Origin: a virus
Reading direction: 5' to 3' (one strand)
IMG/VR virus record: IMGVR_UViG_3300009964_000008
Location: 1 to 49,182 of that record
DNA length: 49,182 bases
In this document: piece by piece, positions 1 to 49,182 of the stretch
How positions within the stretch are numbered: the stretch's first letter is position 1
Layout: every line of letters starts with the position of its first letter
Position numbers and translations under genes: made by a program
The notes under the pieces: generated by a model
What the model was told of the DNA's origin: nothing
Databases searched by the model: none
The model's input: the letters and a program-made list of their open reading frames with translations, nothing else

Positions 1-127
1 TAATAGGCGAACTTGTAAATGATGCGCTCGCTTCCATCGGGACTAGGGACAGTCACACTCACGGGTAGGTACCCGTGCATGGTGTAGGCATAACCGCGCC
101 GCTCACCCGGGAACTGTGCGTCAAAAA
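1..127. repeat. Terminal direct repeat, copy 1 (identical to 49056-49182)
   Basis: Bases 1-127 recur base-for-base as the last 127 bases of the window. The repeat cuts through a minus-strand ORF, so it behaves like a circular-assembly overlap. Confidence 0.95.
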
Positions 128-280: not shown

Positions 281-604
281 TTACTTGAGGTGCTTAGCGA
301 ACTGATTAAGCGCTTCAAGTAGGTTATGTGCTTCCTTGTATTCGGACGGCGATAGACCAAGACGGCCTGTTTCCACTGCAACAGTGAGTTTAATCGCAAA
401 GTGGAACGCATCGTCAAAAACTTCCGTGCGCTTGGATTCGACTGCCTTAGCGCGCTCAATTTCGCCTAGCGCTGTCCTTAGGGCAATTTCGCGGCCCTCA
501 ACAGCGCCTATCATTTCGGCGTCACCTTGGTTGAGAATTGCGTCAGTCTCAATTTCTGCGAGACGCTTCAGCGTCTCATAATCACAAGCAAACGAACGAA
601 TCAT
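281..604 (-). CDS. Hypothetical helical protein (107 aa)
   Basis: ATG at 604 is preceded by GGAAGG 8 nt upstream. The ORF-track start at 646 is a TTG without an RBS. First gene downstream of promoter P1. Confidence 0.7.
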   Translation of the reverse strand: MIRSFACDYETLKRLAEIETDAILNQGDAEMIGAVEGREIALRTALGEIERAKAVESKRTEVFDDAFHFAIKLTVAVETGRLGLSPSEYKEAHNLLEALNQFAKHLK

Positions 605-650
605 TGTTCTAACCTTCCGGTCAATTGGGTTGTTGGTTGTGTTCAAAAAT

Positions 651-714
651 TGGTGAGCCGGTTAGGAATTGAACCTAACCACCGCGCGGGATGCGCAGCC
701 CATTCTAGCGGCCC
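651..714 (-). ncRNA. tRNA-like element A (no D stem, non-canonical anticodon-type loop, encoded CCA)
   Basis: RNA sense: GGGCCGC TA GAATGGG CTGCG-CATCCCG-CGCGG TGG TTAGG-TTCAATT-CCTAA CCGGCTC A CCA. It has a 6-bp acceptor stem with G2-U71, U8-A9, a canonical T-arm, and discriminator A plus CCA, followed by ATTTTT. Only 64 nt, with no D stem and A rather than U at loop position 33. Confidence 0.5.
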
Positions 715-781
715 CTAACGTATGCGCCGCGCCTATTGTTGTGACCTAACCAACAGCTTCAGCGCCTTGCATCGTAGCCGA

Positions 782-839
782 CACGGGCGATTAGCTTACC
801 TGCTAAGTAAGCCGTTAGGGCTTGCACCCTAACCCCGTG
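782..839 (-). ncRNA. Three-way-junction RNA structure inside the P1 leader
   Basis: Outer stem CACGGG(782-787)/CCCGTG(834-839) encloses hairpins GCTTAC-7nt-GTAAGC (794-812) and GTTAGGG-6nt-CCCTAAC (814-833). Confidence 0.4.
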
Positions 840-931
840 CTTAATTTAGTTTACAAAGATCATTCGGACCAAGGTACTTTGCCGTTACTTTGCGTTTCGC
901 GTTTCGCGGGGTTTCCCTTGCCGATAACTAA

Positions 932-3043: not shown

Positions 3044-3068
3044 TACCAATGAGCAAAGGAGAAAACAA

Positions 3069-3404
3069 ATGACAGACAAGGTATTTAAGCTGAGCGACAA
3101 GTACGCGAACCTGCTGATCGAGGTCTGGGAAACCAAGATCAAGGTTGTAGATGACTCACGCCATAACCCACGCGTCACAATATTCTACGGCGACCTTCTT
3201 GAACCCAGCACGATGGTCTACTTCAAGAGCCGACAGTGGTTCTACTCGAAGCCCTATGGTGTTGGTGTGCTGCACGGGATGTGGACAAACTCGGATGGAG
3301 AAGCAAAGAGCGTGTACGACTTCCTCACTGACATCATTGGCTTCGAACGACCTGTCGAAGTTGTCTTTGACCCCCGACACTTTACCCCGAAAGGAACGAT
3401 CTGA
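3069..3404 (+). CDS. Hypothetical protein, paralogue family member
   Basis: ATG at 3069 with RBS AAAGGAGAAAACAA; the ORF-track start 2991 has none. Carries STMVYFKSRQWFYSKPYGVGVLHGMWTNSDG. Confidence 0.8.
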   Translation: MTDKVFKLSDKYANLLIEVWETKIKVVDDSRHNPRVTIFYGDLLEPSTMVYFKSRQWFYSKPYGVGVLHGMWTNSDGEAKSVYDFLTDIIGFERPVEVVFDPRHFTPKGTI

Positions 3405-6325: not shown

Positions 6326-6540
6326 ACGTCGAGTCAATCAACACCCCAGACGATCTCGAAGCCATGCCTGTCGGTACCATGTTTGGTTCCTCGATTGGGT
6401 ACTATGTGCGTTCTTCTAATGGCTGGTGCTCACTGATTCTTGAAGAGTTCTATCCCAGTAGCCAGCTGTTCAACTATCTTCCTGTCGGTATGGTGCCGGG
6501 TACTCGACAGGTGCAGGTCTACTTCCGACCTGACAAGTGA
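6322..6540 (+). CDS. Hypothetical protein
   Basis: GTG start overlapping the upstream TGA (GTGA). Confidence 0.6.
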   Translation: MNVESINTPDDLEAMPVGTMFGSSIGYYVRSSNGWCSLILEEFYPSSQLFNYLPVGMVPGTRQVQVYFRPDK

Positions 6541-6561
6541 CACACAACACACTGTATGGAG

Positions 6562-6591
6562 TTGACAGCTCAGAAACGGTGACTCTATACT
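6562..6591 (+). promoter_or_regulatory. Promoter TTGACA-18-TATACT upstream of the tRNA cluster
   Basis: -35 at 6562-6567 and -10 at 6586-6591. Confidence 0.65.
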
Positions 6592-6664: not shown

Positions 6665-6750
6665 CCCCTTGTGGCGAAATGGCATACGCAGCGCACTCAA
6701 AATGCGCCGCCCGCACGGGCATGTGAGTTCGACTCTCACCGAGGGGACCA
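6665..6750 (+). tRNA. tRNA-Leu (anticodon CAA), class II, CCA encoded
   Basis: Acceptor CCCCTTG/CGAGGGG (one G-U). Anticodon arm GCGCA-CTCAAAA-TGCGC. Long variable arm GCCC-GCAC-GGGC. T-arm GTGAG-TTCGACT-CTCAC. Discriminator A plus CCA. Confidence 0.9.
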
Positions 6751-6913
6751 CCGAGCACCGGACGATGCTGGATGATTAGGTGTATAAACCTGCCGCTCTG
6801 ATCAAGCGGCCGTGCCGGTTGCCGTGACGGGGGTCACGTGCGGGGTAGCACCCTAGGGCTGACAATTTTTGTGTGATGGTTTTTGTTTCGTCAGTCAACA
6901 GCACCCCTTCTAA

Positions 6914-6986
6914 CGGAATGTAGCGCAGTAGGTAGCGCACCTGGTTTGGGACCAGGGGGCCGTGAGTTCGAGTCTCACCATTCCGA
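6914..6986 (+). tRNA. tRNA-Pro (anticodon TGG)
   Basis: Perfect cloverleaf: CGGAATG TA GCGC-AGTAGGTA-GCGC A CCTGG-TTTGGGA-CCAGG GGGCC GTGAG-TTCGAGT-CTCAC CATTCCG A. Confidence 0.95.
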
Positions 6987-7046
6987 CGTTGCATACGCGT
7001 GTGTAACACCTAGTTCCCAGGTGTCCTCCGGGACTACCTGGGTTTA

Positions 7047-7117
7047 TCCCAGATAGTGTAATGGCAGCATGGCAGGTTTTGGCCCTGTCGGACTAGGTTC
7101 GAGTCCTAGTCTGGGAG
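7047..7117 (+). tRNA. tRNA-Gln (anticodon TTG)
   Basis: Acceptor TCCCAGA/TCTGGGA. Anticodon arm GCAGG-TTTTGGC-CCTGT. T-arm CTAGG-TTCGAGT-CCTAG. Confidence 0.85.
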
Positions 7118-7204
7118 CGCTTGACGATGAGGTTGCTCGATAGCACAAAGTGTCACGACCAAGACACCCCCATCGAACGGTTGGGTCACCCTGGTCAGGT
7201 GGCA

Positions 7205-7276
7205 AGCTGCTTAGTGTTAGGGGTTCAGCACGCTGAGTAAGATTCAGAGGGGCAGGTTCGAGTCCTGTAGCAGCAC
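7205..7276 (+). tRNA. Atypical tRNA or pseudo-tRNA (apparent anticodon AAG, short variable region)
   Basis: T-arm GCAGG-TTCGAGT-CCTGT. Acceptor is 6 bp plus an A1-A72 mismatch. U8-A9 present. Anticodon stem is only 4 bp with loop GTAAGAT. There is no long variable arm, although AAG would read Leu codons. Confidence 0.4.
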
Positions 7277-47287: not shown

Positions 47288-47335
47288 GGTTCTACCTTTC
47301 GGTTTGTTGTTCGCTAACCACCTTGGTTAGCGTAG

Positions 47336-47385
47336 TTCCCTAGGCACGGATCGAACGTGCATTAAACCTACCATTAGGCTAGGGA
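47336..47385 (-). ncRNA. tRNA-like element B (acceptor stem + D-like hairpin + T-arm, no anticodon arm)
   Basis: RNA sense: TCCCTAG CCTA-ATGG-TAGG TTTAAT GCACG-TTCGATC-CGTGC CTAGGGA A. It has a perfect 7-bp acceptor stem and a canonical T-loop. Confidence 0.55.
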
Positions 47386-47400
47386 TACCCTTTCTAGGGG

Positions 47401-48901: not shown

Positions 48902-48947
48902 TGTCTTTGCCTTTCGGTTTGTGCAACACCTCGGTTGTGTCGCATCG

Positions 48948-48998
48948 TTCCCCCGGTTGGAATTGAACCAACCTTGACACTCACCATTAAGCGGGGGA
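48948..48998 (-). ncRNA. tRNA-like element C (acceptor stem + D-like hairpin + T-arm, no anticodon arm)
   Basis: RNA sense: TCCCCCG CTTA-ATGG-TGAG TGTCAAG GTTGG-TTCAATT-CCAAC CGGGGGA A. It has a perfect 7-bp acceptor stem and a canonical T-loop. Confidence 0.55.
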
Positions 48999-49012
48999 AG
49001 TTGAAGACTTAA

Positions 49013-49182
49013 TTAGTCTTCGTACGTGTAATTCACAATCTCGCGCGGGCCGGTGTAATAGGCGAACTTGTAAATGATGCGCTCGCTTCCATCGGGACTA
49101 GGGACAGTCACACTCACGGGTAGGTACCCGTGCATGGTGTAGGCATAACCGCGCCGCTCACCCGGGAACTGTGCGTCAAAAA
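49013..49182 (-). CDS. 3' portion of the wrap-around gene (49056-49182 duplicates 1-127)
   Basis: Same frame as 1..251(-). Ends ...YTGPREIVNYTYED with TAA at 49015-49013. Confidence 0.6.
   Translation of the reverse strand, partial: FDAQFPGERRGYAYTMHGYLPVSVTVPSPDGSERIIYKFAYYTGPREIVNYTYED
49056..49182. repeat. Terminal direct repeat, copy 2 (identical to 1-127)
   Basis: Exact duplicate of the window start. Confidence 0.95.

Follow-up and report, generated by a model that had tools for sequence, protein, structure and literature searches.

An anticodon-less tRNA mimic with an encoded CCA end, a candidate processing module at the 3' end of an early phage leader RNA

What is an RNA shaped like the acceptor half of a transfer RNA (tRNA), complete with an encoded CCA end, doing between the predicted first early promoter of a phage and its first early gene? 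The question is raised by IMG/VR virus record IMGVR_UViG_3300009964_000008, all 49,182 nucleotides (nt) of which were analyzed (the window), and specifically by a 64-nt element on its minus strand, element A. A sequence-only reading of the window had described element A as a tRNA-like RNA without a D stem and had offered several explanations: a degenerate or unconventional tRNA, the tRNA-like 3' end of a longer noncoding RNA (ncRNA), or a processing signal related to two further elements, B and C. Here we propose, at a probability that we put at about 0.5, that element A is a non-decoding tRNA mimic that acts as a processing module at the 3' end of an early leader RNA. Coordinates are collected in Table 1, and sequences compared with the window are referred to by L numbers.

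Element A reads GGGCCGCTAGAATGGGCTGCGCATCCCGCGCGGTGGTTAGGTTCAATTCCTAACCGGCTCACCA (minus strand, 714 to 651, 64 nt) and is followed by ATTTTTG/ATTTTTGAAC; its CCA ends at 651, and 46 nt downstream lies the ATG at 604 of an open reading frame (ORF) of 107 amino acids (aa). Sequence, strand, CCA position, and distance to this ATG are as first described. The minimum free energy (MFE) fold consists of a 5-bp acceptor, a 10-nt linker, a 7-bp hairpin with a 5-nt loop, a 7-bp T stem, and a single-stranded ACCA (-28.4 kcal/mol; z = -2.31; 2 of 200 shuffles equally stable). The earlier anatomy stands as regards the acceptor stem, the T arm, the missing D stem, and the encoded ACCA but departs from the MFE fold in its pairing register; that drawing, in which the acceptor has 6 bp and a C:C mismatch, the T stem has 5 bp, and the hairpin has 5 bp closing a 7-nt loop, is an alternative register that also yields 12 stacked pairs. 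A loose script for an acceptor plus a T arm also matches coding DNA, so the case for element A rests on comparison with relatives.

Is element A, then, maintained? Homologues came from exact and protein-guided searches of IMG/VR, from one protein-guided metagenome scan, from contigs encoding homologues of the downstream protein, and from a covariance model, R2. From phage to phage, identity is 0.85 to 0.97 in element A, 0.32 to 0.70 in the upstream leader, and 0.5 to 0.8 at the third codon positions of the next gene; because identity in A exceeds that of both the leader flank and the third codon positions, the element is, on this comparison, under purifying selection. When 15 distinct homologues were aligned by fitting to the covariance model, 97.8% of pair cells were paired (0 of 500 shuffles were as good), and both-sided changes were found in 8 of 19 pairs, namely, 4 of the 7 in the hairpin, 3 of the 7 in the T stem, and 1, doubtful, in the acceptor. 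A MAFFT alignment of nine A sequences gave 97.6% paired and again four compensatory pairs in the hairpin. The helices are kept in the 15 distinct homologues, the opposite of the loss of stems in relatives against which the sequence-only reading had cautioned. The same MFE shape is found in seven of nine variants, and acceptor and T stem always amount to 12 stacked pairs, split as 5+7 or 6+6.

The constant parts are this 12-bp acceptor/T stack, a canonical T loop (UUCAAUU; UUCRANY type), and NCCA; among the features expected of a canonical tRNA, the stack, the UUCRANY T loop, and the discriminator with CCA are present in all intact variants. The 3' end is ACCA in the window-type and 59-nt-type homologues, GCCA in L123, and ACGA in the distant L180 type. 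In the 59-nt type (L111, L119, L121, L133, and L161), the GC-rich hairpin stem is swapped for an AU-rich one, CUUUGU/ACAAAG. The linker, which is purine rich, keeps its sequence within the window type, is (U)AGGAYR in the 59-nt type, and is unpaired over 8 to 10 nt. Nearly every CCA-bearing variant retains a single G.U pair, at 1:72 or 2:71, the exception being L161; the pair is A-U or G-C in L180 and L161. The L180-type module reads GAGCCG-(variable hairpin)-GGUGAA-GGCAGGUUCGAUUCCUGCC-CGGCUC-A-CGA, with A2-U71 and no encoded CCA. An alternative acceptor register, using a second GGGCYGC (701-695), was considered and rejected, since it is not conserved in the 59-nt type, although it is left in the deletion variant L120.

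Could element A nevertheless be a decaying tRNA pseudogene, or a hitchhiking remnant with no function of its own? Loss or damage of the element in L108, L113, L120, L107, and L008 would fit such decay, as would the presence in the phage of genuine tRNA genes and of a marginal tRNA-like element (7205-7276). We regard this explanation as quite improbable: A is far more conserved than its neutral flanks and third codon positions, its hairpin and T stem show compensatory changes, and a distant, higher-GC clade has a homologue at the equivalent position.

Does the element decode? The D stem is absent and no conserved pairing replaces it in the linker; there is no 7-nt anticodon loop with U33 (position 33 is A in the window), and relatives share no triplet. 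Across relatives, the hairpin loop is variously AUCCC, UAAC, AUCC, GUUA, AAAC, CCAU, CAAG, or CCUA, conserved in neither length nor sequence, which argues that nothing reads it. Judged from these comparisons, element A does not decode, and its hairpin is conserved as a shape only. The sequence-only reading had drawn a possible tRNA-Gly with the anticodon UCC, and the window hairpin can indeed be drawn as 5 bp closing the 7-nt loop CAUCCCG. That loop, however, carries A33 and C37, and a 7-nt loop in the same register occurs only in the window and L106, the others having 6 nt there and 4 nt in the MFE register. With loops of 4 to 7 nt and unrelated sequence, no U33, and the stem replaced in one lineage (the 59-nt type has another stem and another loop), the tRNA-Gly(UCC) reading is, by this comparison, an accident of one sequence, and a decoding tRNA-Gly(UCC) without a D stem is hardly credible and is rejected. 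Software agrees: ARAGORN, one of the tRNA finders that had been suggested as a check, does not report element A, and Rfam gives no match at the gathering score, with the tRNA model RF00005 not matching 714-651 at E<=10 in searches of 1.1 kb and 111 nt. One weak Rfam match on the opposite strand (Plastid-ycf2; E = 0.32) was set aside as an antisense resemblance to the T arm. Conversely, the real tRNAs of the phage score 15 to 27 bits with the R2 model of element A.

Two other ways to account for a CCA-bearing partial tRNA are aminoacylation without decoding and recombination. In the first, element A would mimic the tRNA-like domain of transfer-messenger RNA (tmRNA), or would be a minihelix charged by a host synthetase, for use on the ribosome or away from it. 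Like that domain, it lacks a D stem, has a helix where the anticodon stem would be, and carries a T arm and ACCA; it also almost always keeps one G.U pair at the top of the acceptor. The G.U pair, however, is at 2:71 or 1:72 and not at 3:70, and L180 and L161 have A-U or G-C instead; the discriminator varies (A; G in L123); there is no tag frame, and no pseudoknots lie between the acceptor strands. Nor was a tmRNA reported by ARAGORN or a tmRNA family matched in Rfam at E<=10. We hold this alternative to be very improbable.

The second would make element A a relic, of attP type or from recombination, of the 3' portion of some host tRNA gene; attachment sites of phages are often copies of tRNA 3' halves. 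Several observations speak against this idea, which we reject as extremely unlikely. Element A has both acceptor strands and is thus not a fragment, and no integrase was found among the proteins searched. The comparison with host tRNA genes that the sequence-only reading had proposed came back negative: an exact-pattern scan with the T arm plus acceptor pattern TTAGGTTCAATTCCTRAYCG found no tRNA gene in 185,579 species-representative genomes, among which the true host is perhaps unrepresented. The sole bacterial match to the T arm and the start of the 3' acceptor strand was a flavin mononucleotide (FMN)-riboswitch-like site in Ruminococcus flavefaciens (L013, about 3060-3090), a chance likeness through a T-loop-like motif. 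Two further searches of IMG/VR were also discarded, as the loose pattern CTAGAWTG..GGTTCRAWTCC..ACCA returned mostly ordinary phage tRNAs, the long-arm tRNA-Ile(UAU) described below among them, and no further A-type elements, and the 15-mer ATCGGCAAGGGAAAC returned chiefly chance matches.

If A is not a decoding tRNA, what does it belong to? Upstream lies a leader that begins at promoter P1. The sequence-only reading had called P1 a consensus promoter; the site is conserved in relatives as TTGACA-17-TAnnnT, but its -10 box agrees with TATAAT at 3 of 6 positions, for which reason a simple promoter scan did not call it. The sequence upstream of P1 (953-988, minus strand) resembles the promoter region of the tRNA cluster (6534-6569, plus strand; 83% over 36 nt), and an operator-like GTGAC(G/A)CACAACACAC precedes the -35 of both promoters; in other relatives, the palindrome TGTGTCCCTAATCACA stands at this operator-like place.

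An alignment of nine leaders, folded with RNAalifold, gives a common architecture. Its helices covary, with UCGG/CCGA of the 5' helix changing to UCAC/GUGA, and ACG/CGU to ACA/UGU or AGG/CCU. The 5' helix comes first; a conserved single-stranded block, GAUCUUUGUAAACUAAAUUA (about 859-840; GAUCUUUGURAACUAAAU in relatives), follows; a two-hairpin domain (about 836-782) has as its second loop an anticodon-loop-like UURGCAG of 7 nt; a conserved GGCUA comes next; and domain 3 closes 3 to 5 nt before element A in all cases. The single-stranded block tolerates indels of 2, 3, and 4 nt and is therefore not coding; a mini-ORF within it, MIFVN, was dismissed because of frame-breaking indels in relatives. 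No complementary target for the block was found inside the phage genome. The leader ncRNA has no Rfam match, and a likeness of its 5' part (GGCAA..ACGCAAAG) to the cyclic di-GMP-I (c-di-GMP-I) riboswitch was rejected for lack of Rfam support. As far as alignment can tell, the leader is a conserved, covarying structured RNA, and the earlier suggestion that element A forms the tRNA-like 3' end of a longer ncRNA is borne out by this conserved RNA of about 275 nt.

The distribution of the leader is equally informative. In L010-L012, L114, and L115, the whole leader is absent and the same promoter is joined directly to the ribosome-binding site (RBS), so that leader and element A behave as an insertable module. 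In a distant, higher-GC group (L133, L161, L180, L127, L163, and others), the same leader RNA ends in an A-type element (in ACCA in L133 and L161), and a second TTGACA-17-TAnnnT promoter stands between that element and the first ORF; no terminator is evident after the leader RNA in the sequences read (L133, L161, L180, L127, and L163). Here the leader RNA looks like a separate gene, and given the second promoter and no terminator seen, its 3' end would have to come from processing. Element A, a non-decoding acceptor/T-arm mimic, is in this sense placed at the boundary of functional RNA units, with the closed last domain of the leader on one side and the early mRNA, or the second promoter of the distant relatives, on the other.

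Elements B and C show what may be the same theme elsewhere in the early region. Both lie in intergenic gaps on the strand of A and are built of an acceptor of 7 bp, a D-like arm of 4 bp whose small loop contains GG, a linker of 6 to 7 nt, a T arm, and A73; an anticodon arm and CCA are absent. Covariation is strong: among 24 distinct sequences, 99.2% of pair cells are paired and 10 of 16 pairs are compensatory, and in a wider set of 74 distinct sequences, the values are 98.5% and 14 of 16. Elements of this type are 49 to 51 nt long, are preceded 1 to 4 nt away by a covarying hairpin, often over the upstream stop codon, and are followed by CGAUGC, a hairpin, and an RBS; we suggest that this layout of hairpin, element, and hairpin is what excision of the element would call for, with both newly made mRNA ends in need of protection. 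Relatives carry them in series: L128, L141, L178, L170, L166, and L179 have six or seven copies in about 4 to 5 kb, and in L128 (887-4185), each of six copies occupies the gap between consecutive early ORFs over some 4 kb. How close is element A to this family? The covariance model R1 of B and C matches A in the T arm only, and neither model matches the other elements beyond it. The distant A type, however, has the B/C order (acceptor, hairpin, linker, T arm, A-CGAUG), and on the strength of that shared part order, A and B/C are, at the level of sequence, variants of one theme. The earlier suggestion of a processing signal related to B and C accordingly holds in the resemblance of A to covarying, anticodon-less elements, with the cross-match confined to the T arm. 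More distant relatives also have cloverleaf-like RNAs of 74 to 78 nt (L166, 1247-1324; L164, 1543-1616), in which a D-like arm and a T arm accompany a 12-bp "anticodon" stem capped by UUAGCAG and the 3' end reads ACGG.

How might such elements act? Bacterial RNase P recognizes the 12-bp acceptor/T stack, the T loop and elbow, and the 3' RCCA and ignores the anticodon arm. Because element A offers these determinants, we posit that it is processed by RNase P. In this model, the host tRNA maturation machinery would treat element A as a pre-tRNA: RNase P would cut between 715 and 714, an endonuclease would cut in the conserved AU-rich trailer (the form AA-U-rich-GAAC is kept in relatives, L108 included), and exonucleases would trim back to the CCA at 651. 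Three products would result, namely, a structured leader RNA of about 210 nt whose 3' end lies just past the closed domain 3, a released CCA-tailed tRNA-like RNA of about 64 nt, and an early mRNA uncoupled from the leader. Element A would then be the CCA-bearing, leader-associated member of a clade-wide tRNA-like punctuation of the early operon.

What is shown for element A is how it folds, how far it is conserved, where it lies, and which family surrounds it; cleavage, by RNase P or another enzyme, is inferred. Several observations weigh against this model. The base at -1 is G or A and not the preferred U. Compensation in the acceptor stem is weak, being mostly G-C to G.U switches, and the fitting of the 15-sequence alignment to the covariance model is a caveat on the support that it lends. 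Damaged copies exist: 13 nt of the 5' half of A, between direct repeats (GGGCCGC...GGGCCGC), are gone from L120, an acceptor pair is mismatched in L008, and three changes in the L004/L107 lineage are disruptive. The B/C-type and distant A-type elements do without CCA, and processing alone leaves the conservation of CCA in A unexplained. Finally, in L108 and L113, a near-identical leader ends not in element A but in a plain hairpin, which marks A as dispensable or replaceable. This hairpin, GUUAGG-AAUUGAA-CCUAAC, is the reverse complement of the T arm of A and is followed by CAAUUUUCUG; L108 (about 2430-2460) and L113 (about 1-30) are two independent metagenomic contigs, and they amount to a natural swap or knockout of A.

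The swap keeps a simpler 3'-end or attenuator reading alive, one in which the element is a leaky intrinsic terminator or a block to 3' exonucleases, sets the end of the leader RNA and stabilizes it, and involves no RNase P, and in which the likeness to tRNA is incidental or serves CCA repair only. A plain hairpin followed by CAAUUUUCUG at the very site of A in L108 and L113 speaks for this reading, and a U-rich run follows A in most window-type relatives. Yet the terminator scan calls neither the element nor its trailer; the U run begins 5 to 6 nt past the stem, is not found in all relatives, and is interrupted in L008/L109 (AAUUCUGUG) and in L111 (AAGAUUCUG). Moreover, the early ORFs of the window-type phages have no other promoter, so efficient read-through would be needed, and NCCA, the canonical T loop, and the 12-bp stack are conserved although a terminator needs none of them. 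We consider this reading unlikely.

Why, then, is CCA conserved in A? Because B and C do without it, its retention hints that a free 3' end matters in A, whether because a trans-acting product needs it or because it serves CCA repair and stability. A trans-acting product could be a decoy or sponge: the released CCA-tailed mimic would compete with host tRNAs for proteins that read the acceptor, the T arm, and the CCA, such as Cas12a3-type nucleases, MenT-type nucleotidyltransferases, the CCA-adding enzyme, or RNase P itself. This idea is compatible with the processing model, to which it adds a function for the product. In its favor, Cas12a3 binds the acceptor, T arm, and CCA and still cleaves tRNA substrates stripped of loops (PMC12851939), and its authors state that no phage countermeasure is known (PMC12851939). 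Strict retention of CCA in the A type, where B and C dispense with it, would also suit a decoy, as would conservation of the linker and T loop in sequence and not only in structure, and predicted transcription from the first early promoter. Element A is, in addition, accessory, being present, degraded, or swapped among close relatives, as is usual for counterdefense cargo. On the other hand, no partner protein gene covaries with A, distant homologues lack CCA, and a single copy behind one promoter may miss the stoichiometry that a decoy needs. We view the decoy as a tentative proposal, on the unlikely side. The most inclusive picture is also a doubtful one: we speculate that the phage clade may use host tRNA maturation as a general RNA-processing system, a bacterial-virus equivalent of mitochondrial tRNA punctuation, in which elements bracketed by protective hairpins would cut the early operon gene by gene and element A, which ends an ncRNA of about 275 nt, would be released as a CCA-tailed decoy that absorbs host factors or defenses reading only acceptor, T arm, and CCA (Cas12a3 or MenT type).

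Is there precedent for the proposed processing? The closest analogues would be mascRNA at the end of MALAT1 and the plant mitochondrial t-elements with tRNA punctuation. Like element A, mascRNA and menRNA, from the 3' ends of MALAT1 and NEAT1, are tRNA-like RNAs of about 60 nt whose anticodon region is reduced and which terminate a longer ncRNA, and 5' cleavage by RNase P makes the 3' end of the long RNA and frees a CCA-bearing mimic (PMC11693755). They differ in being eukaryotic and nuclear, in acquiring CCA posttranscriptionally, and in that the upstream RNA is guarded by a triple helix (PMC11693755); in the phage, CCA is encoded, an ordinary closed helix finishes the upstream RNA, an mRNA follows, and cleavage is putative. 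Plant mitochondrial t-elements and mitochondrial tRNA punctuation resemble B and C in placing non-decoding tRNA-like structures beside coding regions, where processing by RNase P and RNase Z sets the 5' and 3' ends of mRNAs (PMC1920247, PMC3790967). T-elements are organellar, whereas the phage elements are a homogeneous, covarying family without an anticodon arm, bracketed by dedicated hairpins.

Other likenesses are more partial. The tRNA-like domain of tmRNA, including the reduced mitochondrial tmRNA of jakobids (PMC3590771), shares the parts listed above; A has contiguous acceptor strands, and neither G3.U70, a tag frame, pseudoknots, nor a match to a tmRNA model. D-armless and "armless" mitochondrial tRNAs (PMC6158502, PMC2797822) likewise have a short unpaired loop for the D arm and a length of 50 to 65 nt, but they keep a 7-nt anticodon loop and decode, whereas A has no conserved anticodon loop. 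The 3' tRNA-like structures of plant RNA viruses (PMC7749636, PMC8127992) are also viral RNA 3' modules that mimic tRNA and have a CCA end; these are pseudoknotted, aminoacylated, anticodon-bearing genome ends, whereas A would be an internal module of a DNA phage transcript with an ordinary acceptor stem. The YrlA tRNA-like domain (PMC4201824) is a T-arm/D-arm tRNA mimic in a bacterial or phage ncRNA, but it lacks an acceptor CCA end, and A lacks the Ro-binding helix, a neighboring rsr gene, and an Rfam match; no Ro/TROVE domain was found among the proteins scanned. A survey of structured RNAs in phages mentions tRNA-like candidates generically only (PMC10690425), and we found no description of tRNA-like punctuation in a DNA phage, or of such a leader RNA, in full-text literature searches.

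Table 1. Positions of element A, its parts, and associated features in the window
Feature	Positions	Strand	Details
Element A, anticodon-less tRNA mimic with encoded ACCA	651..714	-	Covariance model R2, 87.5 bits; one copy per genome
Acceptor 5' strand GGGCC	710..714	-	Pairs with 659-655: G1-C72, G2.U71, G3-C70, C4-G69, C5-G68
Unpaired linker GCUAGAAUGG, replacing the D arm	700..709	-	Contains U8, A9, GG
Structural hairpin at the place of the anticodon arm	681..699	-	7 bp, loop AUCCC
T arm GGUUAGG-UUCAAUU-CCUAACC	660..680	-	Canonical T loop
Acceptor 3' strand GGCUC	655..659	-	
Discriminator A and encoded CCA	651..654	-	
AU-rich trailer AUUUUUGAAC	641..650	-	Candidate 3' endonuclease site or weak U tract
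RBS GGAAGG and first early ORF	281..618	-	RBS at 618-613; ATG 604, 107 aa
Promoter P1	932..960	-	TTGACA (960-955), 17-nt spacer, TGC-TAATCT (-10 at 937-932); about 275 nt upstream of the end of A
Leader ncRNA body	715..925	-	5' helix, single-stranded block, two-hairpin domain, GGCUA, domain 3
Element B, 51 nt	48948..48998	-	Covariance model R1, 70.2 bits
Element C, 50 nt	47336..47385	-	Covariance model R1, 69.9 bits
Hairpin covering the upstream gene's stop codon, 4 nt ahead of B	49003..49021	-	Covarying; found in 8 relatives
Hairpin 3 nt after B (after CGA), then RBS of the next gene	48922..48944	-	In all relatives folded singly
Hairpins flanking C	47388-47399 and 47312-47332	-	
Marginal fourth tRNA-like element	7205..7276	+	End of tRNA cluster, 20 nt before ATG 7296

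What kind of phage carries these elements? The two ends of the window (1-127 and 49056-49182) are an identical 127 nt, so the window is a complete phage genome of 49,055 bp, circular or terminally redundant (circularly permuted); it derives from Logan assembly SRR3657276. It encodes a large terminase, a portal, a family A DNA polymerase, a primase, an SNF2 helicase, and, in the tail region, a 1,743-aa ORF that is probably the tape measure. No integrase family was found among the large and early ORFs scanned, and the phage is lytic, with a genome of about 49 kb. The first early ORF has no family match, and no tRNA-related enzymes were found among the neighboring early proteins scanned. Searches of 50,697 phage records with Megablast and blastn gave no relatives, and no cultured phage is close; short matches to Vibrio phages, covering 28 nt of the leader only, were discounted as chance. 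The endolysin (Amidase_2 with choline-binding repeats) is closest to those of phages of Eggerthella, Propionibacterium, and Corynebacterium, and a homologue of a neighboring protein occurs in a metagenome-assembled genome labeled Actinomyces bouchesdurhonensis; from these affinities, we weakly infer a host that is probably Gram positive, perhaps an oral actinobacterial species.

ARAGORN reports only three tRNAs in the window (Leu, Pro, and Gln, 6665-7118), and Rfam agrees. The tRNA-Leu gene (6665-6750) encodes CCA, and the tRNA-Pro and tRNA-Gln genes (6914-7118) do not, a split that parallels that between element A and elements B and C. The marginal element at 7205-7276 reaches 30.1 bits with the Rfam tRNA model (gathering score, 29) in a short-window search only, has an A1xA72 mismatch and a shortened "anticodon" loop, and is called neither by ARAGORN nor by the whole-window Rfam scan. 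Among tRNAs elsewhere, a tRNA-Ile(UAU) of about 90 to 95 nt recurs in unrelated tRNA-rich phage contigs (L024, 7816-7908; L019, 2662-2755; L026, 4858-4951; and many more); its long variable arm, with the loop CUAGAUUGG, is type II-like, which is unusual for tRNA-Ile.

Positions 1000-2200 of the window form about 1.2 kb without ORFs that separate divergent operons. Within them are a perfect inverted repeat, ATGCATATTATGCA/TGCATAATATGCAT (1455-1488), an AT-rich segment (1520-1600), direct repeats AAGTTAGGTAAG.CTAA (1095-1171), and a marked strand asymmetry; the region is a candidate origin or regulatory region.

What would it mean if element A works as proposed? Textbooks already describe tRNA mimics as RNA-processing signals in mitochondria and in MALAT1. 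Standard annotation tools miss all elements of the kind described here, and similar systems may be overlooked elsewhere. Element A would be a tRNA scaffold that is natural and minimal, lacks an anticodon, and has its CCA tail encoded, and such a scaffold bears on how phages might counter defenses that target the universal 3' end of tRNAs, for which no counter is known (PMC12851939). It would also offer a terminator-free way to form the 3' end of a phage ncRNA. If processing by RNase P and at the 3' side is true, these phages would have a new route by which polycistronic early transcripts become stable monocistronic units.

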